DNA from: a virus | Strand: one strand, 5' to 3' | Virus record (IMG/VR): IMGVR_UViG_3300008216_000009 | Location: 31,607 to 95,606 of that record | DNA: 64,000 nt | Shown here: positions 7,476 to 58,457 of the stretch, one piece after another | Layout: each line of letters opens with the position of its first letter | Numbering within the stretch: position 1 is the stretch's first letter | Made by a program: the position numbers and the translations under genes | Notes under the pieces: generated by a model | Told to the model about the DNA's origin: nothing | What the model saw: the letters and a program-made list of their open reading frames with translations, nothing else | Database searches by the model: none

Positions 7476-7478
7476 CAT

Positions 7479-10400: not shown

Positions 10401-11129
10401 TTATCCTATGATACTCGTCTTACACCTGAGAACCAGCTAGGCGACGCTGTTTCGGGTGTTGTAGCGACTTTGCTTTCTCCCATGCTGGCAAAGAGTGGAG
10501 ACGATCCTAGTAATATAGATGTGGGTCTTATGAAAGTCCTGGTTCCCGATGGTATCGAGAAACAGACTGATTTCATGGACACCAAGAATACTCTGGTTGT
10601 TGCTGGGTGGGGGAATTATTACGTCATAGATCAAGAGGGCCACAGAATTGGTATAGAGGGAATGAGGCGAGCTTTAGAGGAATTTTTAAAGCGTCCAGAA
10701 TATGCCAATGTGAATATTTTCCATTCTGGGATACAGGTAGGTCAGATTCTTCCAGAATTCACTGATGAGCACGGTAAATTATGGAAAACTGAAGTAAGAC
10801 CTGAGGGAATGTTTGTTGTGGCTGCCATTAGAAATGATCTTGAAGTTGCTCGTAAGGCTATGAGAGAGATAATGAAAGGCACTTTACGGGGATTCAGTAT
10901 TGCGGGTAATGCTAAAGATAAAGAGTTGAAGTGTGACCATGGTAAATGCTGGACCGAGGTTACAGATATGGAAATGTATGAAGTCACCCTTTGTGTTCAG
11001 CCTATGAATCAAAATTCTTACATAACAGACATTCTTCAAATGCCGGACGCACAAGTATGCCCAGATTGCTATGAGGGTGTTCAAGTTGAGTACGATTCGA
11101 ACCTTAATATTCAGGGTGTTAGTATCTAA
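7479..11129 (+). CDS. prohead maturation protease polyprotein (degenerate Nudix domain, acidic linkers, C-terminal HK97/herpes-fold serine protease)
   Basis: C-terminal domain LVVAGW...IDQEG...NIFHS..QVG...GMFV...GTLRGFSIAG...YEVTLC..PMN with His/Ser catalytic motifs; lies upstream of scaffold and capsid genes. ATG 7479 has SD GAGGAG (ORF track starts at 7437). Confidence 0.85.
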   Translation: MTQELLKHVDEMIESVIVSELGFFQDNNYTIDLSVKTEDGEDSFFVRRNGAVLYAGPDGAKAASQFYSQIAQVHEDDQNGADPDFATLREILEARNQHVKEALSQLGHTDLARSLSKLTFKSIDNEWHDIFFSPDATEEIIKGERVEKLIPAVIGAALGAVGQVAGTVVDAATNVEASDPDETKPKSKAPKVGGVDKSVSDNLIYTEDDRSEEAKDLESPANFDEAASKPNLIMRQELENTSEYQGVFFFIKNSFEELLFVKRTGAPYWELPGGLKKEDESLRDALKRQIALLNLKARQAKQLGSVSMGEGHVSGMIFAVSVSGQIVLPDKYDSLTWVSVGSLANVPLAPDYNIDELKDMITTSMDDPEDRLYLSTNVSNDIYKQRDITDLGDPFQSVGDNYVPPGVRGSVVQDGVRGGVQAREIGDNLKHLRNQVGLKHHEESEGVFKYPDNNPIPEGEDEDLDPGREHVEEENNPYLHKSRDGSRQSYMGLRQSYMGLRQPVNKESPVWETETDSEYVEKFDTQGWDPGHPETINDSRMQPRGIPQERLSERIEKGEDEGIGAKRTLVKVNEYSKRLIDILGDNEEIDFWVLDKISRTGSYMSDIYHHLTDSRKLDVQQKAYPFTVDRPEDMQDPISAQRKKDKLSPASEEALSSAEAGTGTQAFSSGAVVDLPESMDAEIGVQPHAVQGSGSEGVEGGGDGSIDMIPTPDASMNIDEAEKASEFDSRLRSLRKKDPLVRKDTVGSYDDHHHDRLSKVNTFESRLVELKEGGGDGGGGGSFGGDGGSGTAMTSGGTHTATYGGGGTSTAYDSSLKPKSAEVTKSDSDKEEEKESEVETIFENVAETVDSSLEKNADVYGTTEGLSQLPAPDVPELGQTKDPKKSNSIDRHRPGDSESRRRMDGRGVRNEPFPPGQEPIGDDVSNLVIAENEDTYKPAELEERAENEIVRRKFIDEDSHRIRTNDMAAEQYTNLSYDTRLTPENQLGDAVSGVVATLLSPMLAKSGDDPSNIDVGLMKVLVPDGIEKQTDFMDTKNTLVVAGWGNYYVIDQEGHRIGIEGMRRALEEFLKRPEYANVNIFHSGIQVGQILPEFTDEHGKLWKTEVRPEGMFVVAAIRNDLEVARKAMREIMKGTLRGFSIAGNAKDKELKCDHGKCWTEVTDMEMYEVTLCVQPMNQNSYITDILQMPDAQVCPDCYEGVQVEYDSNLNIQGVSI
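8938..8984 (+). repeat. 21-bp in-frame tandem duplication (RQSYMGL x2)
   Basis: GACAGTCATATATGGGTCTTA / GACAGTCATATATGGGCCTTA / GACAG, one mismatch. Confidence 0.95.
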
Positions 11130-11160
11130 ATTTTCAATTTATAGACTTTTTGCAAAAAAC

Positions 11161-11190
11161 TTTACATCTGTAACACTTAGTCGTTATAGT
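11161..11190 (+). promoter_or_regulatory. putative promoter TTTACA-N18-TATAGT upstream of scaffold/capsid
   Basis: Intergenic, preceded by an A-tract; same -35 as the 3049 promoter; strong SD AAGGAGGT follows. Confidence 0.5.
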
Positions 11191-11220
11191 ATTTAGTAAC
11201 CTTTGAAGGAGGTATGAGGA

Positions 11221-13595: not shown

Positions 13596-13611
13596 TTAGG
13601 GGTTTATTAGT

Positions 13612-13656
13612 GGGTAGGTAGGGGATCTCAAAGTCCCCTACCTACTCTAGAGTTTT
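13612..13656 (+). terminator. intrinsic terminator after MCP
   Basis: GTAGGTAGGGGA-loop-TCCCCTACCTAC 12-bp stem, then a T-rich tail. Confidence 0.75.
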
Positions 13657-13753
13657 AACAACAAAATTTAGTCAGTTTTTCTTGTCATGAGTATCCGAGG
13701 GAAACCTTGGAGAGGTTGGTATAGGTGGAAGTGGCAGGAAAAGGAGTTTTTAG

Positions 13754-14140
13754 ATGGCTGTTACATGGACAACGACAATAATTCACCGAAGTGTTTTTGG
13801 TAACAAGAGAATTGTTACCGCAGACATAGAAGCTACTGGCACGAGCACCGTCACAGCGACGGGAGATGCCTATGCTCCATCTGAGCTAGGTCTTACAGGC
13901 TTTGACATAGTCATGATGAGTGGATTCACCCTCAGTAATACGGGAGGGGCTACTCAAACAGCGGCACAGTCTGTGACTGCTGCTGATACAGGATATTTCC
14001 CTGTATATAACTATACCCAAGAGTCAATATCTACCCATCATCTGGGGCCAGCAGATCTGTCTTCGGTGGGTCCTAGCATTGTTGCTACTGGCATCAATAT
14101 AACTGGTGCCAAGATAAGGCTCATGGCAGTAGGTTACTAG
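13754..14140 (+). CDS. virion structural protein, possibly head decoration
   Basis: Directly after MCP; beta-rich, VFGNKR...ELGL...IRLMAVGY. Confidence 0.6.
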   Translation: MAVTWTTTIIHRSVFGNKRIVTADIEATGTSTVTATGDAYAPSELGLTGFDIVMMSGFTLSNTGGATQTAAQSVTAADTGYFPVYNYTQESISTHHLGPADLSSVGPSIVATGINITGAKIRLMAVGY

Positions 14141-14213
14141 TTTTTACAACTGAATATTGGGTTTTGGGGTGGTACGAGTCAGCTCGACTACTGAATTTTT
14201 GACTAGAATTAGA

Positions 14214-14246
14214 AAAATGGGGTAGTCGTTTTGGCTACCCCATTTT
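14214..14246 (+). terminator. intrinsic, possibly bidirectional terminator
   Basis: AAAATGGGGTAG...CTACCCCATTTT perfect 12-bp inverted repeat with A and T flanks. Confidence 0.8.
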
Positions 14247-14259
14247 GTATTGGAGAGAT

Positions 14260-14364
14260 ATGGCAAGACGTAACTGGACACAGTGTAAGTGCGGAGCAAA
14301 GTTGCACGTGAAGAAGGGCGAAAAGATGTGTTATCCGTGTAGGGTTAAGGAGAGGAAAGAATAG
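14260..14364 (+). CDS. 34-aa basic Cys-rich peptide, absent from ORF track
   Basis: SD GGAG; MARRNWTQCKCGAKLHVKKGEKMCYPCRVKERKE*. Confidence 0.6.
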   Translation: MARRNWTQCKCGAKLHVKKGEKMCYPCRVKERKE

Positions 14365-14373
14365 GGTAGGGTT

Positions 14374-14568
14374 ATGAAAAATTTAAGTTTATTTATGGGC
14401 AAAATAAGACCTCAAATTTTCTTAGCACTATGTATTTTAGGAATAGTGGCGATATTAGGAATTTGGCACGGTCTTAATGAGGTCACGGTTGGCTGTATAG
14501 CGGGTATAATTGCGTTAGCAAAAGATGTTTTACAGGTAGATTCTGGTAATGGGGCTGAGGAAGAGTAG
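14374..14568 (+). CDS. small two-TM membrane protein, holin-like
   Basis: Two hydrophobic helices and an acidic tail. Confidence 0.55.
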   Translation: MKNLSLFMGKIRPQIFLALCILGIVAILGIWHGLNEVTVGCIAGIIALAKDVLQVDSGNGAEEE

Positions 14569-14579
14569 GGGGTTAAGGT

Positions 14580-14933
14580 ATGGTGGAGGAGCAAGAATCT
14601 ACAAAGGAAGAAGTTGGTTTAACAAGGAGAGAGTTAGAGACTGAGCTTGTAGGTGCGAAAGCTAAAATTGTAGAGCTTGAAGCAAAGACTAAAACTACAC
14701 TTACAGGCTCTCAATTTCTGACAATCGTACTCGTAGGCCCGTTATTTTTGGCTTTCGTAACACTTGGAGTGTTGATTGTGTGGAAAACGACATCAAAACC
14801 TGCAGAAATTGCGCCACACCTGGATATAATTCTTGTAGCGTTCGCAATTTTCGCCAATCCTGTGACGGCAGCGGCTGGTGTGATTGTGGGTATGATGCAG
14901 GATGACGTGAGAAAGAAGAATGAGGAAAAGTAA
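14580..14933 (+). CDS. two-TM membrane protein with N-terminal coiled coil, holin-like
   Basis: FLTIVLVGPLFLAFVTLGVLIVW and IILVAFAIFANPVTAAAGVIVG helices. Confidence 0.55.
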   Translation: MVEEQESTKEEVGLTRRELETELVGAKAKIVELEAKTKTTLTGSQFLTIVLVGPLFLAFVTLGVLIVWKTTSKPAEIAPHLDIILVAFAIFANPVTAAAGVIVGMMQDDVRKKNEEK

Positions 14934-14969
14934 GTGACTGAGTAGACCGATTGTCTCTAAGGAGTAATC

Positions 14970-15875
14970 ATGAGTGACGATAAACAAAAGAAATTTAGAA
15001 ATAAAAAGTTTTCTTTGCGTCTTCCTTCTTTTACAAGTATTAAGCTGGGGGGATTTGGGTCTTTTAAGCTCCCTGTTTTTGGGAAAATACGTAATCCTTT
15101 CCCGACAGGGCTTTATCTTGGTGGCGGGAAACTAATTGTAATTTCTCTTGCTACCGTGTCTCTTGGATTCGTAGCGTCTATGTTCCTTTTGCTAAGTAAA
15201 GGAGAGCAGGAGATTACTTGGCCCATGACTGGGGCGGTTTACGAAGCTCCTAGTATGATTGGGGCCAGAGTTGTAGACGAAGAAACTCCTATGGAAGCCT
15301 CACAGACGTTGCAGATTAACCTTCCAGGCGGAATACGCCTGGATGAGATTAATCTGGTAAACATTTCTCTGGGTAAGGCTGCTCTAGCTACTGCTTTTCA
15401 GATTGCTGGAACTAGTACGGCTTACATTGTTGTTGATGATTTAATAATTAAAAATTCAGAGTTCCCAAGTATGGACTTTGCGAATTCTGAGTTCTACGCC
15501 ATTAATGCAACCACCTCTGTAGTAGCTGCAGGTCATACTTTTAACATGACGGCTACAACTACTCTCTCAGACATCACTATTGGTAGTGGTAGGGGTGTTG
15601 CTTCTTACGATGCTAAGGACATGGTAGTTGACAGAATTATAATTGAATGCACAGGCAGTTCAGATTGCGTCATTGATACGATAACTATTGATGGTGTCAA
15701 AACATGGATAGGCACCTTTGACTTGGATTATGTTAAAGCCGGAACACTTACCCTAGAAACCCTTAGAGTTGGTGATGATGGAGACATTAATTCGGCTGAT
15801 CTTGTGATTAACAGTACAGTTTATTTCACCTCTGTAACGGATGGCGTGGTAGAGGAGCCTGTAAATATAAAATAG
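14970..15875 (+). CDS. membrane-anchored beta-strand-rich protein
   Basis: Basic N-terminus, one TM helix, Ile/Asp-rich beta-solenoid-like ectodomain. Confidence 0.6.
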   Translation: MSDDKQKKFRNKKFSLRLPSFTSIKLGGFGSFKLPVFGKIRNPFPTGLYLGGGKLIVISLATVSLGFVASMFLLLSKGEQEITWPMTGAVYEAPSMIGARVVDEETPMEASQTLQINLPGGIRLDEINLVNISLGKAALATAFQIAGTSTAYIVVDDLIIKNSEFPSMDFANSEFYAINATTSVVAAGHTFNMTATTTLSDITIGSGRGVASYDAKDMVVDRIIIECTGSSDCVIDTITIDGVKTWIGTFDLDYVKAGTLTLETLRVGDDGDINSADLVINSTVYFTSVTDGVVEEPVNIK

Positions 15876-15917
15876 GCTGAGGGTATTATTAATAGGTTAA
15901 GGTAAAGGGAGAGAGAG

Positions 15918-16094
15918 ATGGTTATTTTAGGAGCGATACGTTTGGGATTGGCAATAGCAAGTAGGTTGAAAGATATGGAGGATCGTATCTCATTATTAGG
16001 TACGCTGACTTTAGCTGTGGGTGATGATGGAAAAGTTACGCCTATTGAGTGGGCTACTATAGGTAAACGCCTAGGTGTGTTTGATGTTAAGTAA
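15918..16094 (+). CDS. 58-aa hypothetical protein, absent from ORF track
   Basis: Purine-rich RBS, ATG 15918, MVILGAIRLGLAIASRLKDMEDRISLLGTLTLAVGDDGKVTPIEWATIGKRLGVFDVK*. Confidence 0.65.
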   Translation: MVILGAIRLGLAIASRLKDMEDRISLLGTLTLAVGDDGKVTPIEWATIGKRLGVFDVK

Positions 16095-16272
16095 ATTGAT
16101 GTCCTGGTTTGTTGGAAGAAGCGGTAAATTGAAGGGCCATGAATTTGGTGTAGTCAGGTTTGGCCCCCAAGAATTGCCTATGGTTCCTTTCAAGCATCCT
16201 CATATAGGAAAGGTTAAACTTTTTTATGTGGACGCTAAGGTCAGGGACAGACTGTCAAAGGTAAATAAATAA
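16075..16272 (+). CDS. hypothetical protein
   Basis: Fills the gap and is coupled to the next gene; true start probably later (MSWFVG). Confidence 0.5.
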   Translation: MCLMLSKLMSWFVGRSGKLKGHEFGVVRFGPQELPMVPFKHPHIGKVKLFYVDAKVRDRLSKVNK

Positions 16273-16601
16273 TGCCAGCACCTACTTTACGTACAAATAT
16301 TGAATTGATGCAGCCCCTACCTAATTACAGGGGGTTTACCACTACTACTTCTAGTGCGTCTGCTACTACTGTTATTGATGTTTCCTCTGTTATGGAGGAA
16401 GCCAACAGAATCACATTCGTAGTGGAGTTAGGGGATCTGTACATCAATTTTAATGGTGCGGCTACCAGTGACGGTACTTCTATGATAGTTCCAGCCGGGA
16501 CCGGTTATACAGAGGAGATGATGCGGATAACTGGGTTGATTTCAATTATGCGGGTTGGGACTACAAATGGTCGTATTCGTGGTTGTGTGTGGGGGAGGTA
16601 G
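16272..16601 (+). CDS. small beta-sandwich virion protein, paralog 1
   Basis: Shares IELMQP, YINFNG.AT..GTSM..PAGTGYTEE with the next gene. Confidence 0.7.
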   Translation: MPAPTLRTNIELMQPLPNYRGFTTTTSSASATTVIDVSSVMEEANRITFVVELGDLYINFNGAATSDGTSMIVPAGTGYTEEMMRITGLISIMRVGTTNGRIRGCVWGR

Positions 16602-16961
16602 GTGACTTATCCACACGCAGGAAAATCTGATGAAGTAATAAAGCTTCGCCTAGATATAGAGTTGATGCAGCCGTATGAGGCTTTTAAACCTTTTACGTTG
16701 ACCACTAGTGGAGATACCGCAGAAACGATTTTTACAGTTTCAGAATTTATGACAGAAGCGAATCACATTACGTTGGTTGTTGATCGGGCAGATATGTATA
16801 TAAATTTTAACGGAGATGCCACAACATCTGGTACTTCTATGTTGCTCCCCGCTGGTACTGGGTACACAGAGGAGTTCATTAGGCTGACTGGGAAGATTTC
16901 AGTGGTACGTGCGGGTTTATTAAATGCGAGGATAATTGGTGCTGTTTGGGGCACAAACTAA
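16602..16961 (+). CDS. small beta-sandwich virion protein, paralog 2
   Basis: Clear tandem paralog of 16272-16601. Confidence 0.7.
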   Translation: MTYPHAGKSDEVIKLRLDIELMQPYEAFKPFTLTTSGDTAETIFTVSEFMTEANHITLVVDRADMYINFNGDATTSGTSMLLPAGTGYTEEFIRLTGKISVVRAGLLNARIIGAVWGTN

Positions 16962-16982
16962 TAGAGTTATGGGGGGCTTAGA

Positions 16983-17945
16983 ATGCCATTAGACAAAGGT
17001 TTTGAGTTTCGTTTTGGGGAGCACGAATTTCGGACAGTACGGGAATCGATTGCTGCTCCAGTTAAGTTTGTTCCTTTTAGTAAGACTTTAGCAACTACTA
17101 ATACTGCTGAGGATTTGTTGACCACTGATCCTGATGTACCTGCGTATAATTTGGTTACTAATCCCCATATGGTTGGCAGCGGGACTCCTCCTGCAGGATG
17201 GACTGCTGTCAGTGCTACGGTGACTAGGGTAACCACTACTCCTAGGGTAGGCAGTCATTCCATGTCAGTTGAGACAGGCAATGCGGTGGCTGCTGAGGGT
17301 GCTTACTTTGAAGCAGCAGATATTCCACCCGGGAATTACGCCTTATCTGTCTATTTGAGGCGTGATGGTGGGGGGACTGCATATGTTAGGGCTTCCAGTG
17401 ATGGTGGTACTACATTTACTAATGGCAATGTAGTCACTATGGCAAATAACTGGAACGGTAGAAGTACAGTATTTCATAAGGTTAAGACTACCGAGACGAG
17501 TATTAGGCTTTATGTAGTTACCAATACCCAACAAAATATCACGTACTTAGTAGATTCTGCTCAAATAGAGCCATCGTGGCACGTAGTTATGGGGAGTGGA
17601 ACTTCAACTAGGGATCCCAATCCTCCCGTAGCGGCAGTTACTGCAGTTGTAGATCCTCTCAGTGACAGATTCTCACGGTGGCTTGGTACTACTGATGCGT
17701 CTAATTCAGTTCGTGAGCCAGGATTGAATGAGATTCATTACGTATATATGTGGGCAAGCCATGATACCTACGTAGATTTTGATAGGACGGTAGCTATTCG
17801 CACGGCTACTCCGTTGGGATATTATTTGACCGCTGGGATAGCCTATGCCCTAGATATACATAAAATAGTTAAGAATAATATTTCCTTTGTTAATGCGTCA
17901 GGAAGTGAAACACCTAAGGTCATCGGTTATGCGATGGGCTTTTAG
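16983..17945 (+). CDS. virion protein with inserted carbohydrate-binding-module-like domain
   Basis: NLVTNP...GW...GSHSM.V...Y.LSVYLR...W...VDSAQIE is a CBM4/9-like pattern. Confidence 0.65.
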   Translation: MPLDKGFEFRFGEHEFRTVRESIAAPVKFVPFSKTLATTNTAEDLLTTDPDVPAYNLVTNPHMVGSGTPPAGWTAVSATVTRVTTTPRVGSHSMSVETGNAVAAEGAYFEAADIPPGNYALSVYLRRDGGGTAYVRASSDGGTTFTNGNVVTMANNWNGRSTVFHKVKTTETSIRLYVVTNTQQNITYLVDSAQIEPSWHVVMGSGTSTRDPNPPVAAVTAVVDPLSDRFSRWLGTTDASNSVREPGLNEIHYVYMWASHDTYVDFDRTVAIRTATPLGYYLTAGIAYALDIHKIVKNNISFVNASGSETPKVIGYAMGF

Positions 17946-17957
17946 GGAGGATCCTAG

Positions 17958-18644
17958 ATGGGACTTTTCAATGTATATACAGTTTCGAACGCCTACAGGA
18001 GTGATTATTTTCAGTATCTGAGCGAACAGTGGGCAAACGACACCGATGAATTCACTGGGGCTTGGAATCGTAGCAGCACTTCTTTAATTACTCGTGTCAA
18101 AACTGATACGGATATGCCGAAGGCGCAGATTGCATTAACGTCTAACACGGCTGCACGTCTTCGAACTATTTTTACTTTTAGGGCCACTCCCGGTAAGTTT
18201 ACTGGAGCGGGTTCTACTACCATGGTTCGGGGTACTTTCATTGAGTGGGAAGCTAAATTATCTAATGTAGCTAACGTAGATAACTCCATTTTCTTTATGG
18301 GAGTGAATGCTTCTGCATCAGCTACGAGAGCAACCACTAATTTAATTGCATTTGGGTTATCCAGTGATAGTTTAATGGCTGTTTCTGATAATGCGGGTAC
18401 TGAGACTACCACCGCTATTTCAGGTATAACTTTGGCTGATCGTAATATGTATCGTCTGTCTATAACGGGTGGACAGATAGAATATTCTGTTAATGGAAAT
18501 ATTCTGGCTACTCACACTACTAATATTCCCGATGTAATTGGGTATCTTCAATTTAACCACGATACAGAGGCAGGGGCTTCTAATTTAGATATAGGTTTTG
18601 TTCATGTGTTTTATCGTGGTGTTGAGGATACTAGATCCTTTTAG
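17958..18644 (+). CDS. lectin/concanavalin-like virion protein
   Basis: EWEAK...FFMG...YRLSI.....EYSVNG..LATHTTNIP beta-sandwich pattern. Confidence 0.55.
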   Translation: MGLFNVYTVSNAYRSDYFQYLSEQWANDTDEFTGAWNRSSTSLITRVKTDTDMPKAQIALTSNTAARLRTIFTFRATPGKFTGAGSTTMVRGTFIEWEAKLSNVANVDNSIFFMGVNASASATRATTNLIAFGLSSDSLMAVSDNAGTETTTAISGITLADRNMYRLSITGGQIEYSVNGNILATHTTNIPDVIGYLQFNHDTEAGASNLDIGFVHVFYRGVEDTRSF

Positions 18645-18656
18645 GGGGGGCTATAG

Positions 18657-31250: not shown

Positions 31251-31829
31251 ATGGTTACGGGAAAAGCAGATATAAATGTAGTGTCGGATGATGAGGATAG
31301 GGGGCCATTGGTAGAGGATGAGGATTTTGCTGCAGCGAAAGCTTCTATAGAAGAGAAGGCAGAGAGTCTTGGTGACAGTCCTGAAGATGTACTGGCCTTT
31401 TTAGAGGCCGATGAGGATGAGGAATCAGAGGAGTCGTATTACGATTCACGTGTCCCTATTGCTAGGGATATACGTCCTGTGATTGCGGCATGGCATGAGT
31501 ATAAGAATGCTATGGCGCAGGTCAAGACAACTTATAAGTTGTGGAAAATAGAAGCTAATGATCTTGGTGGAGAAAGTGATCAGCGTCGAGATGCAATAGT
31601 ACAGAATGCCGCTAGGATTAAAAGGGCTTTGGATGTTATTGAAAAAGAACTTAAGGAAGTATTCCCTAAGCTAAAAGGAGCCGCTTTTTTGACCCGTTCT
31701 GAAATCATAGTTTTGCCTAGGTGGATGCATAAATTGTTAGGAATAACTATTGAAGCCAGTGCCGATGAACGTGAATCGGCCCAGGCAGACCTACAAAAAC
31801 AATTGGATGGAGCAAACGAAGCAGAATGA
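31251..31829 (+). CDS. hypothetical acidic/helical protein
   Basis: SD GGAGG; ATGA overlap with the next gene. Confidence 0.7.
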   Translation: MVTGKADINVVSDDEDRGPLVEDEDFAAAKASIEEKAESLGDSPEDVLAFLEADEDEESEESYYDSRVPIARDIRPVIAAWHEYKNAMAQVKTTYKLWKIEANDLGGESDQRRDAIVQNAARIKRALDVIEKELKEVFPKLKGAAFLTRSEIIVLPRWMHKLLGITIEASADERESAQADLQKQLDGANEAE

Positions 31830-39956: not shown

Positions 39957-39958
39957 AC

Positions 39959-42672: not shown

Positions 42673-42704
42673 GATTACTATTATAATTTTGGAGAAGTAG
42701 ATTT

Positions 42705-48406: not shown

Positions 48407-48435
48407 TTGACACGTGATCTAGCTTCAGGTATGAT
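48407..48435 (+). promoter_or_regulatory. sigma70-type promoter TTGACA-N17-TATGAT for the replication operon
   Basis: TTGACA 48407-48412, TATGAT 48430-48435, intergenic, preceded by GTGC as in the 905 promoter. Confidence 0.85.
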
Positions 48436-48520: not shown

Positions 48521-49816
48521 ATGCTAGAGCCATCTCAGGCTGAGAAGATACTACTCTCTTCGATTCAGACCCCTACCCACCTCTACTCTCTTCAGCAAAA
48601 GTATGGTATTACGTCTGAATCGTTTTTCTATTTCCAAGAACCAGCAAAATTTATTTTTGATTACATAATTGATCAGGGTTCTGCTCCCACTCCCACGCTA
48701 ATCTCCTCGACTTTTGCGAATACGGCTACGCCGTTTGACCCCGCCCCCATAGATAATTTCGACTACATTGCACAGCAATATGCCACGATAAATACTCGTC
48801 AAAAAGCATACATGGCAATTGCAACTGCCCAAAAATGGCTCCAAGAGTCTCCTAATGACGGCGTGATGCTGCTCTCAAAGACTTTGGAGCGAATAGCAAA
48901 GCCAGATACCACCCATAGATCCTCTCTTGAACGTACTACTGAGAGTCGATGGCAGTCGTACTTGGCTAGAAGGGATGATGAAACGGTGAATCGGATAAAA
49001 ACTGGAATACAACCGCTAGATGAGAACAACATCTGGCTACAGAAACAGCAATTAGTTGGCATTCAAGCTGACACTAAGATTGGTAAATCCTGGATAGCGT
49101 GGAAATGTGCTTCCCAAGCATTTGAAGAGGGGCATAAAGTTCTACTTATTAGCCCCGAATTATCGGCTTTGGAAATGGGCATACGCTCAGATGTAATTTT
49201 GTCTACGTTATTTGGATATACACTGTCGTATCAAGCTATACAGAGGGGTGATCCTTCGATTGGTGATGAGTATAAATCTTATCTAGAGTCTATTTCGGCA
49301 AACAAAGAAGACCGATGGATACAATACGACCAAGTTTTCAACCTGAAGCCATCTCCGTCAGAGTTGGACACGGTTATCACTCAAGAATCGCCTGATGTTG
49401 TAATTGTAGACGGTATATATCTATTGCGATCTGATGAGAAGTTAACTGCTGCGTGGGAACAAATTAGAAGCATTTCAATAAGTTTAAAATCTCTGGCGGT
49501 GAAACATAATGTACTCGTATATGCGACAAATCAAATTAATAGACATGGTGCTCAAAAAAGTCAGGACAATGATGGAGAACCGCCCCCGCCTACAGATACC
49601 GCATACGGTTTCGATTTTGCCCGGACTGTTGACATTCTCTTTGGAGTTGGGGCTAGATCGCTTGAGGACACAACTCGCAAAATTAATGTTCCACTTGCCC
49701 GGTCTGGGCCGAGCTTTAATGACAGCTTTGAGATCACCTTTGTACCCGATCAAGGCGACATTGGGCGTACAGTTTCAAGTGCTCCTCCGAATCTTATTGA
49801 TAGTTCTGAGTGGTAG
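48521..49816 (+). CDS. dnaB: DnaB-like replicative helicase
   Basis: IKTG...LD, Walker A ADTKIGKS, ISPEL, Walker B VIVDGIYLL, LK.LA.K.N..V...NQ.NR. Confidence 0.9.
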   Translation: MLEPSQAEKILLSSIQTPTHLYSLQQKYGITSESFFYFQEPAKFIFDYIIDQGSAPTPTLISSTFANTATPFDPAPIDNFDYIAQQYATINTRQKAYMAIATAQKWLQESPNDGVMLLSKTLERIAKPDTTHRSSLERTTESRWQSYLARRDDETVNRIKTGIQPLDENNIWLQKQQLVGIQADTKIGKSWIAWKCASQAFEEGHKVLLISPELSALEMGIRSDVILSTLFGYTLSYQAIQRGDPSIGDEYKSYLESISANKEDRWIQYDQVFNLKPSPSELDTVITQESPDVVIVDGIYLLRSDEKLTAAWEQIRSISISLKSLAVKHNVLVYATNQINRHGAQKSQDNDGEPPPPTDTAYGFDFARTVDILFGVGARSLEDTTRKINVPLARSGPSFNDSFEITFVPDQGDIGRTVSSAPPNLIDSSEW

Positions 49817-49988
49817 TCTTTATTTATCTATAGTTGGTTTTATTGTTTGGGGGTCATTTTGGATAGCGGGGGAGGAAAATATTTATTTGGGGATAATTGC
49901 AGGGACATTCTTTTTTAGTGTGTTAACACTAAGTGTGTCTCTTTTGATATTGGCAGTTTTGGGACGGGTGCAGAATGACAATACGTGA
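49797..49988 (+). CDS. small two-TM membrane protein, start uncertain
   Basis: 3' part of ORF 49509-49988 fills the dnaB-primase gap and encodes two hydrophobic helices. Confidence 0.45.
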   Translation: MIVLSGSLYLSIVGFIVWGSFWIAGEENIYLGIIAGTFFFSVLTLSVSLLILAVLGRVQNDNT

Positions 49989-50895
49989 ATTTCTCTCACA
50001 AATAGCTCAATTGAAAGTTGCTAAGTCAACTGGAGATGAGGTTCTGGCCTATTGCCCCTGGCATGATGATCAGAATGCGTCTCTAGCTATAAATCATGTC
50101 AAGGGCATGTTCCACTGTTTTTCGGGTTGCGTGAAGGGGTCTGGGGGGCTTCTTAGCCTGTTTGAGAAGTTGGATGAAACTGGAGTGGTGGCGAATAAGT
50201 ATCTAACGCTGTTTGCAGCCGACATATCTAATTTCATGCCAGTAATTGATTTTGATCATGATGCTGATATTGAGTCCGATGACGGTTACGATGTGATGTC
50301 GTTGCCGTTAGCAGAGAAAAACGAGTATTTGATGGGACGAGGAATTACGGATGAGACTGTTCGTAGGTTTGACCTCCGATATCATGCCGATGATGACTGT
50401 ATTGTTATACCGATTTGTATGAGAGGAGAGTTGATTGGTTATATTCGTCGCAATATAAGCTCTAATCCCAAATACCTAAATTCCAATAGTCTGCCAAGGG
50501 ACATACTCATCTATCCGTTTGATTTGTTTGAACCTAACAGTAGCACGGTGTACGTTTGTGAGGGACCGTTTGATGCTATTAAGGCCCACCAATTAGGGCT
50601 TAGAAATACGGTCTGCACTCTGGGTGGAGTGATTTCTGACAATCAGTGTAGGTTGCTGGGAGAGTTAGGGAGTCACATAGTCCTATGTGTGGACAAGGAT
50701 GATTCGGGTGTGCGTATCACCGAAACAAATACTAAAAAATTAGTAGGTAAATATGGGTTTTCTGTTGACTACACAACCGCTCCGGGACAGGCAAAAGATT
50801 TTGGAGATGCGGTTGATTTAAGTAATTTAAAAATCATAAGTCCATACGAATTAAAAGCAATAAACAGAGATCTGGAATACATAATAAGGAGCTAA
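49975..50895 (+). CDS. dnaG: DnaG-type primase (CHC2 zinc finger + TOPRIM)
   Basis: CPWHDD..AS...FHCFSGC, YL..RGI, PKYLNS, VCEGPFDA, D.DDSG. Confidence 0.95.
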   Translation: MTIREFLSQIAQLKVAKSTGDEVLAYCPWHDDQNASLAINHVKGMFHCFSGCVKGSGGLLSLFEKLDETGVVANKYLTLFAADISNFMPVIDFDHDADIESDDGYDVMSLPLAEKNEYLMGRGITDETVRRFDLRYHADDDCIVIPICMRGELIGYIRRNISSNPKYLNSNSLPRDILIYPFDLFEPNSSTVYVCEGPFDAIKAHQLGLRNTVCTLGGVISDNQCRLLGELGSHIVLCVDKDDSGVRITETNTKKLVGKYGFSVDYTTAPGQAKDFGDAVDLSNLKIISPYELKAINRDLEYIIRS

Positions 50896-50897
50896 AA

Positions 50898-51926: not shown

Positions 51927-51950
51927 AAAGGGAAATGAGGTAAAAATACT

Positions 51951-52301
51951 ATGTCTAAAGTGAGTGTGACGTTAGGTTTGACGCTAAAGATGAACAGCGG
52001 CGGGGGTTACAACTTCTTCCGCCCGGAGATAACTATCTCAGATATTGAAACTGAGACGGATATCGCTCCTCAGATTGAGAGGAGTTTGGCTGCTATCAAG
52101 GAGGTGTGGGCAGCTATTGAAGAGAACATGGATACGATTGTGGATTCTTCTGAATTGGCTGAGAAGCCTTCGGCCTTGACAGAGATTCATCGACGTATAG
52201 CCGAATTTGAAGCAGATGTGAGCGAGTTGAAGACTCGACTTGCTGCTGGTGATGGAGCAGTCATGAGCGTATCTGACAGTGATAAGGATACAGATTGGTA
52301 A
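51951..52301 (+). CDS. hypothetical phage protein
   Basis: KVSVTLG.T.....YN..R.EI motif common in phage replication regions; C-terminal coiled coil. Confidence 0.65.
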   Translation: MSKVSVTLGLTLKMNSGGGYNFFRPEITISDIETETDIAPQIERSLAAIKEVWAAIEENMDTIVDSSELAEKPSALTEIHRRIAEFEADVSELKTRLAAGDGAVMSVSDSDKDTDW

Positions 52302-53374
52302 AAATAGATAGAACTCTTTTACATAGTAGCCTGAGCTACATCAACACCAATTCCAAAAAGCAAAAAAATGAGGCATTGGTGGGCCAGGTTTCTGATGGAA
52401 TTTTACGGCTTTGGCAACCCGGATTCGTCCGAGTATGGGATGCCATACCTGTGGAAGAGTCGGAGCCTATGTTTTTCACAGTTGAATGTGACAAGCTCAC
52501 TAAGATTGTGAATGCCTGTACCAGTAGTGTTATTTCGATGTCTGTCAAGGATAAGAAATTAAATATTTCCTTCGGTAAATCGAGAGTACGATTACCGTTT
52601 CTTGAGAGCGTGGAAACTGGAGTTGATCCTCCTCCCGACACTGTAAGTCAGATTGTGGTTGGGAACGATTTTATACACTCTCTTAGCCAGGGTCTGAATT
52701 TCTTGGCTAGAACTGAGCATGCTCCGGCTCTTACCTGTTATTACGTTTCTCCTTTATCCTCTGGATTGTTGAGGATAACTGCGAGCGATGCGATGAAATT
52801 GTATATATCAGACCTTGAGTATGATGATGCTCAAACGTTTGAGTCCTTTTTGCTCCCTAGGGAGTGTGGACTCCTCATGACCAAGATATTTTCTAGGTCT
52901 AAAGAGATATCTATAGGTCTTACGGAGAGGGGAATATTAGTTTTGTCCGAGGTGGGGAGTGAGAGAGTCGTAGTTTCTCCCCCTTACAGTGGGAAATATC
53001 CAGATATGTCCAGATTGATAGATGAATCGTCTGATAAACTTTTTAAGGCCAATAAGAAAGAGCTTCAGAACATGCTTCAGCTTGTCAATATTACATCAGA
53101 TATGAAGCAGGTCAGATTTAGTCAGGTGAATAGTAGTTTGGAACTGTATGCTACTAAGTCTCAGATTGAGACTGATTTGGTGCTGAACAATGTGGAGATT
53201 TTCAAGGAATTTGACGACATGAACTTCAATGCCGAGTTTTTTGGTGCGTGTGTAGCTGCGGTGGATGGAGATGATGTAATTATTAGCAACGCCAATGAAC
53301 GAATGAAAGCATACAGGATTGACAATGACGAAAGACAAGAATCCTATTGTCTCGTCCAAGCCCTATCAAGTTGA
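52295..53374 (+). CDS. dnaN: DNA sliding clamp (beta subunit-like)
   Basis: 359 aa three-domain size; ASDAMKL (cf. ATDGHRL), GKYPD..RLI, FNAEFF. Confidence 0.8.
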   Translation: MVKIDRTLLHSSLSYINTNSKKQKNEALVGQVSDGILRLWQPGFVRVWDAIPVEESEPMFFTVECDKLTKIVNACTSSVISMSVKDKKLNISFGKSRVRLPFLESVETGVDPPPDTVSQIVVGNDFIHSLSQGLNFLARTEHAPALTCYYVSPLSSGLLRITASDAMKLYISDLEYDDAQTFESFLLPRECGLLMTKIFSRSKEISIGLTERGILVLSEVGSERVVVSPPYSGKYPDMSRLIDESSDKLFKANKKELQNMLQLVNITSDMKQVRFSQVNSSLELYATKSQIETDLVLNNVEIFKEFDDMNFNAEFFGACVAAVDGDDVIISNANERMKAYRIDNDERQESYCLVQALSS

Positions 53375-55103
53375 GAATCTTGATCTTTTAAAGACTGAGA
53401 TTTTAAACAGCCATGATGATTATGTGGCGGTGGACACTGAGACTTCGGGATTAAATTGGACAGTAGACAGGGCGTTCGGGGTAGCATTTGCCTGGGATGA
53501 CCGATCTACCTTTATTAGAAACTCTACGTTTGGCGTAGAGAAGATAGGCATTCTCCTCAGGGATCTTTTTGCCTGTGATGGCAAGACTTTCGTCTATCAC
53601 AATGCAGAATTCGATTTGCATATGATACGGGAAACTTACGGTGTTGCTCCCTCCAAGAATGTTATTGATACGCTACGTGTTTCCCATTTGCTCAACTCTT
53701 CTACCAGCAATGCCTTGAAGACGTGGGGAGAGGAGAACTACGGCATTGCAGCTACATATCACGAAGATTTGGTATCTGAGTATTTGAAGCAGTACAAATT
53801 AAAGAGTTATGAGCATGTTCCTGCGGAGGTGATGGATCCATATGCAGCGAATGACACTGTTTTAACGAAAGCTCTTGCCTATAAATATGTACCTGTAGTG
53901 AAGAAACAAGCTGGAAGATTATTTGATCTGGAAATGAAGTTGATCCCTGTGGTAATGGATATGGAACGAGAGGGTATCCTGATTGACCAGGAGTACATAC
54001 AGGAGCTACAACAACGGGTTGTAGACCGTCAGAGAGGTCTGACCGATCAAATATATAAGGTAATTGGAAAACCTATAGATATAGGGTCTAGCAAGCAGCT
54101 AGGGAATTATTTCTATGATCGTTTGAATATAGGTAAATCAATCGATAAAAAGAATAATAAAAGTGTCTTTATCACAGAAAAAGGGAATTGGTCTACAGGT
54201 GAGAAGGCTTTAAAGGCTATCAGGCATACTGAGGGGTCCGTGGTAGCTCAGTATTTGTTGAAATGGAGAGAGCTTGAAAAGGTAAATAATACTTATTTAC
54301 GTTCTTATCTTAGGCTTGTCCATAACGGTAGAATCCATGCTCGATGGAATGCATGCGGCACTATTACGGGGCGATTTTCTGGATCTAATCCAAATCTTAT
54401 GCAGGTTCCTAAGGATCCCAAGATTCGTAGAATATTCATTCCAGATGAATTGTTTATAGACATGGACTTCAGCCAGATTGAATTGAAATTGATGGCCCAT
54501 GTTTCCAAGCAAGGCAGTATGATTGATGCTTTTGTTGCTGGACATGATATGCATTCTTATACTGCGGCTCAGATACTGAACAAGCCCATAGACCAGATAG
54601 ACAAAGATAGCAATGAGAGGAAAGTAGCCAAGGCCATTAATTTTGGGGTTATTTATGGCATTGGAACGAAGGGTTTAGCCGATCTTGCGGAAATACCAAT
54701 GAGTTCAGCCAAAAGGTATTTGAATGTTTATTGGGATAGTTATCCGAGTATAAGATCATATTTTGATGAGCAAAAGGCATCTGCCGAAAAGAATGGGTAT
54801 GTCCACACATTATTTGGTCGTAGGATTTCAGTGACCGACAGATTCCACGCTGCTCCGAATTATGTCATCCAGGGGACTGGGGGAGATATGATGAAGTTGA
54901 GCCTCTATAAGGCTTGGCTTTACGTGAAGAGTGTTGGTGGGTCTATACGGAACACTATCCACGATCAAATTTTATATGATGGGATGGATATCAAGCATGT
55001 GGAGCCTCTTCGAGAGATAATGCAGGATTATAGTTTTTCGATGCCTATAACAGTAGACGTTCAGACTTCCAAGAAAAGCTGGGGAGATTTATATGACAAC
55101 TAA
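53319..55103 (+). CDS. polA: family A DNA polymerase with 3'-5' exonuclease
   Basis: Exo AVDTETSGL, HNAEFD, YAAND; TGRFS...PNL.Q.P, motif A DFSQIE, motif B R..AK.INFG.IYG, motif C IHDQ. Confidence 0.97.
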   Translation: MTMTKDKNPIVSSKPYQVENLDLLKTEILNSHDDYVAVDTETSGLNWTVDRAFGVAFAWDDRSTFIRNSTFGVEKIGILLRDLFACDGKTFVYHNAEFDLHMIRETYGVAPSKNVIDTLRVSHLLNSSTSNALKTWGEENYGIAATYHEDLVSEYLKQYKLKSYEHVPAEVMDPYAANDTVLTKALAYKYVPVVKKQAGRLFDLEMKLIPVVMDMEREGILIDQEYIQELQQRVVDRQRGLTDQIYKVIGKPIDIGSSKQLGNYFYDRLNIGKSIDKKNNKSVFITEKGNWSTGEKALKAIRHTEGSVVAQYLLKWRELEKVNNTYLRSYLRLVHNGRIHARWNACGTITGRFSGSNPNLMQVPKDPKIRRIFIPDELFIDMDFSQIELKLMAHVSKQGSMIDAFVAGHDMHSYTAAQILNKPIDQIDKDSNERKVAKAINFGVIYGIGTKGLADLAEIPMSSAKRYLNVYWDSYPSIRSYFDEQKASAEKNGYVHTLFGRRISVTDRFHAAPNYVIQGTGGDMMKLSLYKAWLYVKSVGGSIRNTIHDQILYDGMDIKHVEPLREIMQDYSFSMPITVDVQTSKKSWGDLYDN

Positions 55104-56049
55104 GAATAAAACAGGTATTCAGGATATAGTTAAAGTAATCAATAAAAAGCTGAAGACAAATATATCTATAGGGGACTCTGAATCCCTAGAGATTAAGCGT
55201 ATAGAGACTGGTATCCCTCCCTTTGATCAAATGTTGGGTGGGGGAATTCCTCGACAATCGGTAACTGAATTTTTTGGGTATCATGGTAGTGGCAAGACAT
55301 ACATAGCTCAACGAATAATGGCCTATGCACAGTCTCAGGGGCTTCGGTGTGGTTTTGTTGATGCAGAATGGGCTTTTGAGCCTATATGGGCTGAGACAAT
55401 AGGTCTAAAAACCGAAGAATTAATTGTTTCCAGACCTCACACAGGAGAATCTGCTTTAGATATCTTGCTGGCTCTTTGTGAGAGTGGATTGGATTTGGTA
55501 GTTTTAGATTCCATCGCTGCTCTTCTCCCTACGGCTGAGGCTGAGGGGAGTATGGAAGATATGCAGATGGGTCTTCATGCACGTTTGATGAATAAGATAT
55601 TTCGAAAACTTCCTATAGCTATGAGTGCTACAACTCCAGGCACTGCCGTAATCATGATCAATCAGATTAGGGCGGGATTGGGAGGATACATAACTAAAGA
55701 ATCATTGCCGGGGGGCAAAGGGCAAGAGTTCTTTAGTAGAATTATGGTACGTATGGCGAAGGGTGAGTCTATAGGAGACAGGGGATTCTACATTAAGATG
55801 AGAACTCCCAAGAATAAAACTTTTAAGCCCCTGCAGGAATGTTTGGTTCCTTTTTATTATGATGGTCAACAAAATCCCACATACGAGTTATTCTCTACGG
55901 CTCTTGATTTGGGGGTTATAGAGCGTAGAGGGGCCACGTATACTTTTAATGGGATTAAGGCTATAGGTAAGGATAACTTTGTTTCCTCTATGAAAGATAA
56001 CAAAGATTTGTATGAAGAAATTAAAACACTGGTAAGGAGTAAGGTATGA
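55093..56049 (+). CDS. recA: RecA/UvsX recombinase
   Basis: GGGIPR, GYHGSGKT, FVDAE, DSIAAL.P..E.EG, ARLM, INQIR, PGG. Confidence 0.95.
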   Translation: MTTKNKTGIQDIVKVINKKLKTNISIGDSESLEIKRIETGIPPFDQMLGGGIPRQSVTEFFGYHGSGKTYIAQRIMAYAQSQGLRCGFVDAEWAFEPIWAETIGLKTEELIVSRPHTGESALDILLALCESGLDLVVLDSIAALLPTAEAEGSMEDMQMGLHARLMNKIFRKLPIAMSATTPGTAVIMINQIRAGLGGYITKESLPGGKGQEFFSRIMVRMAKGESIGDRGFYIKMRTPKNKTFKPLQECLVPFYYDGQQNPTYELFSTALDLGVIERRGATYTFNGIKAIGKDNFVSSMKDNKDLYEEIKTLVRSKV

Positions 56050-56522: not shown

Positions 56523-56829
56523 TGCTTTTAAGACTGATACTAAGCATCAGCTACTCATAAATAAGTGGATAGAAGAGCTTGGTATAGGAACAGTCATTGA
56601 GCAGCCGTTTGGTGCTTATTCTGTGGACATATTTATTCCAGATTTAAATCTAGGGATAGAAGTGGATGGTCCTTATCACCTGAAGAAACGTGATTTAAAA
56701 CGGGATGAATATCTAAAACAGGCACATGGTGTTGATATCTGGAGAATCCCCATCAAAAAGATGGGGGCCGGGTATAAAGATAAATTTTTATCTAGACTAA
56801 TGATTAGAGTAGAGGAGTTGGATAGCTAA
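56512..56829 (+). CDS. DUF559/Vsr-like endonuclease
   Basis: Y.VDIFIP.L.L.IEVDGPYH...RD..RD.YL.....I.RI. Confidence 0.85.
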   Translation: MRDDAFKTDTKHQLLINKWIEELGIGTVIEQPFGAYSVDIFIPDLNLGIEVDGPYHLKKRDLKRDEYLKQAHGVDIWRIPIKKMGAGYKDKFLSRLMIRVEELDS

Positions 56830-57513
56830 ATGCCTTTAATAGATAGTGTTTCAAATTTTCAAAAACATTGGTTAGAGCGAACTTTTGATGAGTATGATCA
56901 GACAACTCAAAGAGAGCCGAAGAAGAGAGATTATTTTACTCCGTCGAATGCCCATTGGTGTCCCAGAGCTATTTGGTATCACTCTATGGGGTATGAACAA
57001 GATCCTATTGAGGCCAATTCTCTGAGACGTATGGGAGTTGGAACTGTTTATCATGAGTTCCTCCAGGAGAAGCTAAAAAAAGCTGGAGTACTTGTGAGTA
57101 TGGAGGAAGAGGTCACCTGGGATGATCCTAAGATCGTTGGTCACTATGATGGGATTATAAAAAATCCTGAGACTGATGAAGATTTTCTGTTGGAGATAAA
57201 GAGTAGATCGGATAATAAAAGAGCGGTGAATTACTTACCTCGTGCAGAACATATTCTTCAGTGGAATCTGTATTCTGCCATGACTAAAGTTGTTAAGGGG
57301 ATCATTTTCTACATCAATAAAAATACTCAGGAATATAATATCTATGAGACTCAAAGGAACGATCAAATCATAAGTAAGGTGTTTAAGAAGTTGAGGAAAA
57401 TACGAGACTATGTGAGTCGTGGTGAAATAGTACCTTACCAGCCCAAGGAAAATCACGATTGGTGCAATTTTAAAACTACATGTGAAAGAGATTTTTTTAT
57501 AAAGGGGAAGTAG
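56830..57513 (+). CDS. Cas4-like PD-(D/E)xK exonuclease
   Basis: PS...CPR..W, GT..HE, GHYDG, EIKS, Q..LY, C-terminal H.WC.F...C. Confidence 0.85.
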   Translation: MPLIDSVSNFQKHWLERTFDEYDQTTQREPKKRDYFTPSNAHWCPRAIWYHSMGYEQDPIEANSLRRMGVGTVYHEFLQEKLKKAGVLVSMEEEVTWDDPKIVGHYDGIIKNPETDEDFLLEIKSRSDNKRAVNYLPRAEHILQWNLYSAMTKVVKGIIFYINKNTQEYNIYETQRNDQIISKVFKKLRKIRDYVSRGEIVPYQPKENHDWCNFKTTCERDFFIKGK

Positions 57514-57990
57514 ATGAATCTGGATACTTTGCAGGTAAAGGCAAAGGAAATAGGACAGGGGCTGGAGAATTTTCCAGAACCTAGTATTCCCCTAGACGGG
57601 GATTCGTATGAGTTCCCTAATAATGCCGATAATTTGAGTGATGAACAACTTGATTCATGGTTGATGTTTTTTGGAGCTTGGCGTGGATATGTCATCAATC
57701 AAATTGCTCAGAGGGACGGTGAGGTCAGTTTATTGGGGGAGGGATTTGATTTGATGATGTCTTCTAAGTCTGCTGATCTTGAGGCTGTAGCTACTAAACG
57801 ACTTCTTAAAGAATCCTTACGAGGAACTATACTCAATGAGAATTCAGACTTATTGAATTTGAGTAAAAAGATAATGGTTCTCAAGGCCGAATTAAAGGTT
57901 TTAAAGGGTCGTTTGAGCTTGTATGATGTTCAATTTGAAGCTATTTCTAGGGTCATTACTCGTCGTGGGCAGGAACGTCAAAGGGCATGA
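57514..57990 (+). CDS. helical recombination-mediator-like (UvsY-like) protein
   Basis: Coiled coil ending SR.ITRR; position among recombination genes. Confidence 0.45.
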   Translation: MNLDTLQVKAKEIGQGLENFPEPSIPLDGDSYEFPNNADNLSDEQLDSWLMFFGAWRGYVINQIAQRDGEVSLLGEGFDLMMSSKSADLEAVATKRLLKESLRGTILNENSDLLNLSKKIMVLKAELKVLKGRLSLYDVQFEAISRVITRRGQERQRA

Positions 57991-58457
57991 AGAGAGTTTA
58001 CGGTATAGATATTTCCACCTCAAAAATAGCCGTTGCACGTCTAGTCGATAGTGATTTTGATGTGATAGAATTCCGAGCACGATCACGGTCTTGGGAAACA
58101 AGACTAGCTCAATTATATAAAGAGTTCTTCTCTTACGTAGAGAAGGAAATAACCTCGGATGACTTCGTGTGTGTTGAAGATATACCGATGGTTCAGAATA
58201 GAAAAGGTTTGATTAAGTTAGTCCATGTTTTGGCTATGTGTCGTGTTGTTTTCTTTCATCACGACATAGATTGTTTCCCGGTTAATGTGAGCACGTGGAA
58301 AAAGGATGTCGTGGGAGATGGTAGGGCAGATAAAGACAAGATTAAAATGATGGCGTTGCAGATTTTTGGTAAGAGCATTGGAAAGTATTCTCAAGATTCT
58401 ATTGATGCTCTTATGATTGCTAAGTGGGGCCAATTGCGTTTTAACTCGATAGGGTAA
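57987..58457 (+). CDS. ruvC: RuvC-like Holliday junction resolvase
   Basis: GIDIS, VED, V.VSTWKK..VG.G.A.K, D..DA..IA. Confidence 0.9.
   Translation: MKRVYGIDISTSKIAVARLVDSDFDVIEFRARSRSWETRLAQLYKEFFSYVEKEITSDDFVCVEDIPMVQNRKGLIKLVHVLAMCRVVFFHHDIDCFPVNVSTWKKDVVGDGRADKDKIKMMALQIFGKSIGKYSQDSIDALMIAKWGQLRFNSIG

Follow-up and report, generated by a model that had tools for sequence, protein, structure and literature searches.

The 64,000-nucleotide stretch of viral DNA analysed here (the window) covers positions 31607–95606 of the 95,606-bp IMG/VR record IMGVR_UViG_3300008216_000009 (genome G000) and belongs to a large marine siphovirus-like bacteriophage. The lineage quite probably represents bacteriophages whose virion genes come from a family hitherto seen in archaeal tailed viruses only, while the genes for replication and the expression signals are bacterial. 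Virion genes of this family occur together with bacterial host signals, and the combination recurs in independent genomes. Two sister genomes were used for comparison, G001 (141 kb, assembled from a different sample and bearing terminal repeats) and G002, the sister genome sizes being 88–141 kb; their major capsid proteins (MCPs) are 83% (G001) and 49% (G002) identical to that of the window. According to family scans, the window consists of a head block, uncharacterised open reading frames (ORFs) including two giant ones, a tail block and, from 48.5 kb, replication genes (Table 1). Every substantial ORF lies on the plus strand, and GC content and skew are even along the whole window.

The MCP contains all of the motifs (YGRKVWDALN, GWRV, LLQAQQR, AGFQVSTYRGIP and PTQY in the alignment) in which the original prediction, made from the DNA letters alone, had recognised a likeness to viruses of archaea. 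This likeness is real and far above chance, as seen from tblastn, profile searches and the protease. A tblastn search with the MCP against 50,697 phage and archaeal-virus records matched 10 of them: eight from five Druskaviridae haloviruses, one Methanofastidiosa virus and one actinophage (6e-4). Two more distant representatives of the family match only haloarchaeal, Methanofastidiosa and Methanomassiliicoccales viruses among the same records. The MCP thus groups with those of Druskaviridae, magroviruses and methanogen viruses, apart from known bacteriophage MCPs.

Searching 1.84 billion representative proteins with a profile built from the MCP clade of the window yielded 504 relatives. The MCPs of viruses of 69–98 kb that encode a family B DNA polymerase (PolB) are matched at 1e-43 to 5e-52, the lowest value belonging to a 69-kb virus (G011) and values of 1e-43 to 1e-46 to magrovirus-type genomes (five, of ~95 kb). 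The profile matches halovirus MCPs at 1e-20, the MCP of the Methanofastidiosa virus vir519 at 7e-19 and that of actinophage DS1 at 2e-4; the MCPs of E. coli phage SU10 and Streptomyces phage Comrade give no match. Among the 504 relatives is P0155/P0276 (E 3e-40), found in abundant genomes about 95–98 kb long. In blastp the window MCP aligns with magrovirus MCPs over the full length with 27% identity (1e-30 to 1e-35). Grouping of the MCP and protease with ordinary bacteriophage clades, which the original prediction had named as evidence against itself, is found neither by tblastn nor by the profile.

An insertion of ~80 aa (aa ~160–245) is peculiar to the MCPs of the window clade and absent in the alignment from all archaeal-virus homologs. 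It is beta-rich, was modelled by AlphaFold with a predicted local distance difference score (pLDDT) of 80–90 and may form an accessory or decoration-like domain. The model of the entire MCP is moderate (pLDDT 63.7). In Foldseek it matches the HK97, SU10, Mic1 and VP1 capsids and encapsulins; a profile search of solved structures with the MCP gave just a marginal match to the Mic1 capsid.

The lineage is widespread in the sea. Its MCPs form >1000 clusters at 90% identity, IMG/VR contains 109 confirmed matches to it, and 359 metagenome matches were obtained for one sub-lineage. The GenBank protein ASE99928.1 ('uncultured virus') is an MCP 92% identical to that of the window. The MCP representatives P0162, P0192 and P0289 have no counterpart in IMG/VR.

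The protease domain occupies aa ~1031–1221 of the ORF at 7437–11129 (nt 10527–11129), so that position 10560, where the originally marked interval starts, falls inside it. All of the predicted protease motifs are located in this part of the protein (LVVAG, HSGIQVG, GKLWKTEV..GMFVV..RND.E.AR and LRGFSIAG), and the ORF matches the PHROGs head maturation protease at 1e-8. In blastp the protease is 34–35% identical to those of magroviruses (1e-27); matches to haloviruses reach 3e-9 (30% identity to the HCTV-1 protease) and those to Streptomyces phages 3e-6 (29%). The homolog of this protein has 970 aa in G001 and is a separate 543-aa ORF in G002. In haloviruses, a giant protein of ~1200–1300 aa, annotated with a zeta-toxin domain, takes a position comparable to that of the ORF at 7437–11129.

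The other virion genes were compared by blastp with the ORFs of halovirus and magrovirus loci. The protease, MCP, neck and tail tube proteins match both groups; the tail assembly chaperone and the tape measure protein match haloviruses only. The neck protein finds halovirus ORFs annotated as HCTV-1 gp117 and HVTV-1 gp125, as well as magrovirus ORFs (1e-12). The tail tube protein finds the annotated HCTV-5 tube (5e-8) and magrovirus ORFs (2e-9), and a tblastn search with it against the 50,697 phage records gave no match. In the genome-wide comparison, the virion genes and a single non-virion gene, ribonucleotide reductase (RNR), are all that G000–G002 share with the archaeal relatives.

The window and the rest of the 95.6-kb record were found to contain no portal and no large terminase (TerL) gene; the collinear genomes G001 and G002 have both. 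The record lacks a block situated after the RNR gene in G001 (~14–34 kb there, with TerL, portal and several large ORFs), which explains the absence of the two genes. For the same reason the CheckV rating of the record as '100% complete' is wrong; the record probably comprises ~2/3 of a full genome. The ORF at 4551–6143 was considered as TerL and rejected, since it matches nothing in Pfam, PHROGs or the phage records and the TerL of the lineage sits in the missing block.

Membership of the portal in the family was therefore tested on the sister genomes, outside the window. Among the 50,697 phage records, the G001 portal matches eight Druskaviridae records only (1e-31). Identity to a magrovirus portal is 29% (5e-64) for the G001 protein and 29–31% for the G001 and G002 portals taken together. 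In this lineage TerL and portal adjoin genes of replication and nucleotide metabolism (20631–24475 in G001, 37554–44066 in G002), and in G001 an early-gene block of ~40 kb separates them from the protease–MCP block.

The replication and recombination genes, judging by their family matches, belong to types that occur in bacteria and bacteriophages. Pfam and PHROGs bear out the predicted DnaB, DnaG, beta clamp, PolA and RecA, and RuvC was found in addition. PolA has 4199 matches in the phage records; among the matches listed, all are bacteriophages. PolA, DnaB and RecA are present in G000, G001 and G002 and absent from the PolB-encoding relatives. The PolB model (PF00136), which matches six of six PolB-type relatives, has no match in any of the three genomes. 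All five of the magrovirus-type genomes of ~95–98 kb that were tested possess PolB (split in several of them) and are devoid of PolA. The Pfam model of MCM is uninformative here, because it has no match even in magroviruses. At the window end a class II CCA-adding enzyme of the PolyA_pol family with an HD domain is encoded; its ORF is still open at position 64000.

Expression signals were predicted by a search for TTGACA-N16–18-TATAAT with at least 11 of 12 consensus positions and compared with shuffled sequence. The search gave 22 sites in G000 (2.2 expected), 29 in G001 and 16 in G002, with 2–4.5 expected across the three genomes. The sigma-70 promoters claimed in the original prediction are thereby borne out, with the main signal upstream of the window: 20 of the 22 sites in G000 lie on the minus strand of genome positions 1–29 kb, all with a 17-nt spacer and with the consensus TTGACA-N17-TATA[AC]T. 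Sites off the main strand cluster number two in G000, one in G001 and four in G002. Three PolB-encoding relatives by MCP show no enrichment (4, 0 and 11 sites against 8.4, 3.5 and 7.4 expected). The window itself contains two sites with 11/12 positions (905–933 and 48407–48435) and two weaker ones (3049–3077 and 11161–11190), all four between main plus-strand ORFs and on the coding strand.

The early region also contains 34 terminator-like sites (a hairpin followed by a T-run) versus 17.8 ± 4.4 expected, many with GC-rich stems of 7–13 bp. At genome positions 10243–10330, upstream of the window, the minus strand encodes a tRNA-Tyr(GUA) of 88 nt that combines a long variable arm with G1-C72, A73 and an encoded CCA. 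This is the form typical of bacteria, whereas archaeal and eukaryal tRNA-Tyr has a short variable loop and C1-G72. G001 encodes tRNA-Leu(UAA), and G002 encodes tRNA-Met and tRNA-Trp with G73, a discriminator that is a bacterial identity element in tRNA-Trp. Together, the promoter and terminator signals, translation components and replication genes point to a bacterium as the host. The only match to a cellular genome is a 2-kb fragment (CAZSDV010000125.1, 2030 bp, 80% nucleotide identity) in a metagenome-assembled genome (MAG) of an uncultured acidobacterium (Acidobacteriota). It was not used as host evidence, since nothing else in this MAG matches the first 20 kb of the window. A murein amidase (Amidase_2, PF01510) was found in none of the five genomes searched.

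In the proposed scheme, the particle would be built from a virion module of the Druskaviridae/magrovirus/methanogen-virus family (protease, MCP, neck, tube, chaperone and tape measure proteins, with the portal known from the sisters). Early genes could be read by the host sigma-70 RNA polymerase from the array of near-consensus promoters, with transcripts ending at the intrinsic terminators. The genome would supply the bacterial-type tRNA-Tyr and the class II CCA-adding enzyme. DNA could be copied and repaired by the phage-encoded DnaB, DnaG, beta clamp and PolA with the participation of RecA, RuvC and RNR.

Such a combination could have arisen artificially, by the joining near 48.4 kb of an archaeal-virus structural half and a bacteriophage replication half; the record is a metagenome assembly, and its functions do break at 48.2–48.5 kb. 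There is practically no chance of this. The adjacency of the last tail ORF to dnaB, dnaG, polA and recA recurs in G001, and the order of tail genes, dnaB, polA and recA holds in G002 as well. Contigs from three other sequencing runs (X9, X10 and X14) span 48.1–48.9 kb with no joints, the X9 contig crossing the junction over 2494 nt with zero differences, and GC content and skew continue over the junction. The chimera near 48.4 kb, which the original prediction had left to read mapping, is refuted by gene order and bridging contigs. Alternatively, the window could derive from an archaeal virus (e.g., of Poseidoniales or another marine archaeon) with captured bacterial-type replication genes and coincidental promoter-like sites. 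Its capsid, portal and tail genes are those of an archaeal-virus family, MCP and portal are used as markers of archaeal viruses (PMC8651126), and one closely related MCP is recorded in a MAG of Pacearchaeota. Nevertheless, this explanation is strongly disfavoured and very improbable in view of the 20 one-strand sigma-70 sites in 29 kb, with arrays in the two sisters and not in the PolB-encoding relatives, the enriched GC-rich terminators, the bacterial features of tRNA-Tyr and the absence of a PolB match in G000–G002. Moreover, where archaeal counterparts would be expected, the genome has RecA, RuvC, the DnaG-type primase, the beta clamp and the class II CCA enzyme.

As to how a bacteriophage lineage came to these virion genes, a cross-domain event after the diversification of the capsid family (a switch of host domain in which the replication module was replaced, or else recombination between viruses) is slightly favoured. 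The event is placed after the diversification because magrovirus MCPs score at least as high with the window MCP (112–127 bits) as with other archaeal-virus MCPs (83–116 bits with those of haloviruses and 60–84 bits with those of methanogen viruses). A vertical split of an ancient virion-module family into separate bacterial and archaeal branches, the bacterial one never cultured, would make any exchange or host switch between domains unnecessary; it is rather unlikely, though a good deal less so than the two explanations above. The same pairwise scores would argue against a split dating back to that of bacteria and archaea, which is expected to be deeper than those between viruses of different euryarchaeal orders. 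In a FastTree phylogeny of 118 MCPs the window clade (14 rows, support 100) lies inside the family, beside the halovirus/magrovirus assemblage. The IQ-TREE phylogeny (LG+C20, 58 rows) also has a monophyletic window clade (approximate likelihood-ratio support, SH-aLRT, 85; 98 for a 12-row core), placed as described below, and the long actinophage outgroup joins at an unresolved base. When the window clade was constrained to group with the marine/halovirus clade, the log-likelihood dropped by 9.4 units; the approximately unbiased (AU) test does not reject this topology (p = 0.27). Both 'sister' and 'nested' positions therefore fit the data, and the tree gives neither a direction nor an age for a cross-domain event. 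A fuller scenario, in which the lineage crossed the archaea–bacteria boundary, kept a Druskaviridae/magrovirus-type particle and exchanged the PolB replisome for DnaB–DnaG–PolA–RecA and sigma-70 early promoters, is plausible but somewhat short of probable. Thus, the bacteriophage lineage with archaeal-virus head, neck and tail tube genes stands as originally predicted; the cross-domain exchange or host switch proposed along with it is not established.

Several observations weigh against a transfer from archaeal viruses or against the strength of the bacteriophage assignment. The IQ-TREE phylogeny sets the window clade outside a 42-row clade (SH-aLRT 92) with all archaeal-labelled MCPs, a placement equally compatible with an old split and with a transfer. 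Links to actinophages, weak but real, also agree with an old split: the DS1 MCP, the Streptomyces phage protease and TerL, and the fold of the Arthrobacter phage Jasmine MCP. When the MCP model was compared with a viral library, its own lineage aside, the Jasmine MCP matched about as well as that of HVTV-1; therefore, remote actinophage relatives of the family exist. TerL has 368 matches led by bacteriophages, chiefly ~130-kb Streptomyces phages (31% identity, 1e-67), and hence not the whole morphogenetic block is 'archaeal'. This behaviour agrees with the description of TerL as the least domain-specific hallmark gene (PMC8651126). Replication genes and promoters were checked in three genomes of the MCP clade; the deeper members P0134, P0135 and P0162 are unlabelled, as is the basal clade of P0148, since its loci are fragments without any polymerase. 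Most of the ~100 related MCP representatives are unlabelled metagenomic proteins, so the 'archaeal' part of the tree may include further bacterial members. Finally, the evidence for the host comes entirely from signals in the DNA, and a member of Chloroflexota, guessed at in the original prediction, is an unconfirmed candidate.

Among known systems, Druskaviridae (HVTV-1, HCTV-1 and HCTV-5; haloarchaeal siphoviruses of ~102–104 kb) possess homologous portal, protease, MCP, neck, tube, chaperone and tape measure proteins with identities of 24–30%, arranged from the protease onward in the same order as in the lineage. Genome size is similar, and a class II-type RNR is found in both. Druskaviridae differ in their haloarchaeal host and in the lack of the DnaB/DnaG/PolA/RecA set, their replication being PolB-based (Philosof et al., PMC5434244). 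In comparison with them, the window has the additional MCP domain of ~80 aa, a protease within a 1230-aa protein and two giant ORFs that split the head and tail genes.

Magroviruses (Magrovirales; uncultured, assigned to Marine Group II/Poseidoniales, ~95–100 kb) are the closest by MCP (27%), protease (34–35%) and portal (29–31%) and, like the lineage, are marine and abundant. They are described as having PolB and an archaeal-type replisome (PMC5434244), and the PolB-encoding genomes of ~95–98 kb analysed here match this description. The differences are PolB (split in some genomes), the absence of PolA, DnaB and RecA, and no enrichment in sigma-70 sites. In the lineage, the sigma-70 arrays, terminators and bacterial-type tRNA-Tyr would speak against a Poseidoniales or other archaeal host, and PolB with an archaeal-type replisome appears to be absent from G000–G002.

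A similar mismatch between the capsid family and host-interaction genes would be present in Adrikavirales, compared with the lineage here by description only. Vyasavirus brisbanense (Satyavativiridae, 87 kb), assigned to Poseidoniales, has a Druskaviridae-like MCP and is reported to lack PolB and, indeed, any DNA polymerase (PMC11706807, PMC13108676). Its bacteriophage-like holins and murein amidase were called 'puzzling' (Prabhu et al., PMC11706807; ICTV profile 2026, PMC13108676). Contig names related to Adrikavirales are not among the best 80 of the 359 metagenome matches.

The best bacteriophage matches are provided by large actinophages (~130-kb Streptomyces phages of Stanwilliamsviridae, Cellulosimicrobium phage DS1 and Arthrobacter phage Jasmine). 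The likeness concerns TerL and the protease at the identities given above, the MCP of DS1 weakly and that of Jasmine by fold. They differ in MCPs which the clade profile either does not detect or finds at 2e-4, and in portals unmatched by the G001 portal.

According to Liu et al. (PMC8651126), MCP and portal evolve in concert and specifically mark archaeal tailed viruses, which show 'virtually no recognizable similarity' to bacteriophages at the sequence level; 'only a handful' of bacterial sequences were found. The same work describes a marine-dominated MCP clade with Druskaviridae, magroviruses and viruses of thaumarchaea and Thermoplasmata. The window lineage belongs to or adjoins this clade, yet it is bacterial. 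Surveys of magroviruses collect genomes by MCP similarity (PMC10160649). No paper on the combination of an archaeal-virus-type virion module with a bacterial replisome was found in the literature.

Table 1. Features of the window and the matches or positions on which their assignment is based (coordinates in window numbering).
Feature	Coordinates	Strand	Basis and remarks
Multidomain head protein, 1230 aa: NUDIX-like domain (aa 261–379) and C-terminal prohead serine protease	7437..11129	+	Weak Pfam NUDIX, Peptidase_S78
Predicted sigma-70-like promoter, TTTACA-N18-TATAGT	11161..11190	+	10/12; between ORFs 7437–11129 and 11221–12279
Probable scaffold, 352 aa	11221..12279	+	Position alone, directly upstream of MCP; no family match; 52% identical to syntenic G001 ORF
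MCP, HK97 fold, 438 aa	12279..13595	+	Pfam PF17236 3e-10; phrog_24667 9e-12; tblastn, profile, tree, structure
Seven ORFs of 109–320 aa, presumed head-completion/connector	13754..18644	+	Downstream of MCP; syntenic, 35–73% identical to G001
Two giant ORFs, 2398 and 1523 aa	18657..30425	+	Between head and tail genes; weak DUF3540 match alone
Neck/tail-completion protein	31826..32938	+	phrog_17057 6e-16; common to haloviruses and magroviruses
Tail tube protein, 570 aa	34400..36112	+	Pfam Phage_tube_2 5e-12
Tail assembly chaperone	36472..36912	+	blastp to HVTV-1 and HCTV-5 tail assembly chaperones, 1e-8; haloviruses only
Tape measure protein, 902 aa	37248..39956	+	Position; weak blastp to halovirus tape measures, 3e-5; haloviruses only
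Putative distal tail and fibre proteins, 544, 359 and 1826 aa	39959..48185	+	Position; no family match; syntenic with G001
Predicted sigma-70-like promoter, TTGACA-N17-TATGAT	48407..48435	+	11/12; upstream of dnaB
DnaB-family replicative helicase	48521..49816	+	Pfam DnaB_C 4e-13
DnaG-type primase, CHC2 zinc ribbon and Toprim	49975..50895	+	Pfam
Beta-type sliding clamp	52295..53374	+	phrog_947 processivity factor 5e-27; weak Pfam DNA_pol3_beta
Family A DNA polymerase with 3'-5' exonuclease	53319..55103	+	Pfam DNA_pol_A 2e-83
Bacterial-type RecA with C-terminal domain	55093..56049	+	Pfam RecA 4e-52, RecA_C 4e-8
PD-(D/E)XK nuclease, 158-aa ORF, RuvC-like resolvase	56830..58457	+	Pfam
RNR with C-terminal TSCPD domain, consistent with class II (NrdJ)	58479..60788	+	Pfam; just past the end of the originally marked interval

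Some of the remaining ORFs can be characterised further. Among the seven ORFs at 13754–18644, five were scanned against Pfam and PHROGs with no match; those at 16272–16601 and 16602–16961 were outside the scan. The region of the giant ORFs is partly conserved in G001, but there it consists of several smaller ORFs. Upstream of the head genes, DUF3150 (5e-12) at 2–619, DUF3008 (7e-18) at 3935–4567 and a PaaX-like Cas2-fold domain at 1466–2083 were observed.

Downstream of the RNR gene, an NrdH/glutaredoxin-like ORF of 77 aa (61432–61665) opens its U-G-P-C motif with TGA and is followed by a short hairpin. The original prediction had read this as a bacterial-type selenocysteine insertion sequence (SECIS). 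The ORF with the U-G-P-C motif does exist; the SECIS itself is unsupported, as no Rfam SECIS model matches near 61.4 kb, no Rfam family reaches its gathering score in the window, and the ORF has no homolog in G001 or G002. The selenoprotein reading is thus unproven.

The data in hand support the identification of the window as part of a bacteriophage with an archaeal-virus-type virion module. The lineage is a concrete and testable example of a virion module present in the two prokaryotic domains with sequence similarity still recognisable (24–35% identity). Since it copies and expresses its genome with bacterial machinery, capsid and portal genes alone cannot define a virus as 'archaeal', and prediction of the host domain from capsid genes can fail. 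The practical weight of the finding lies in host-domain prediction and in the taxonomy of marine 'archaeal' viruses; modular tailed phages as such are an already known kind. It also provides a means to re-examine 'archaeal' virus taxa with bacterial-looking lysis genes. If the crossing of the domain boundary is true, calls of 'archaeal virus' by MCP and portal in marine surveys would include abundant bacteriophages, and such miscalls may reach ratified taxa, e.g., Adrikavirales with their puzzling bacterial lysis genes.

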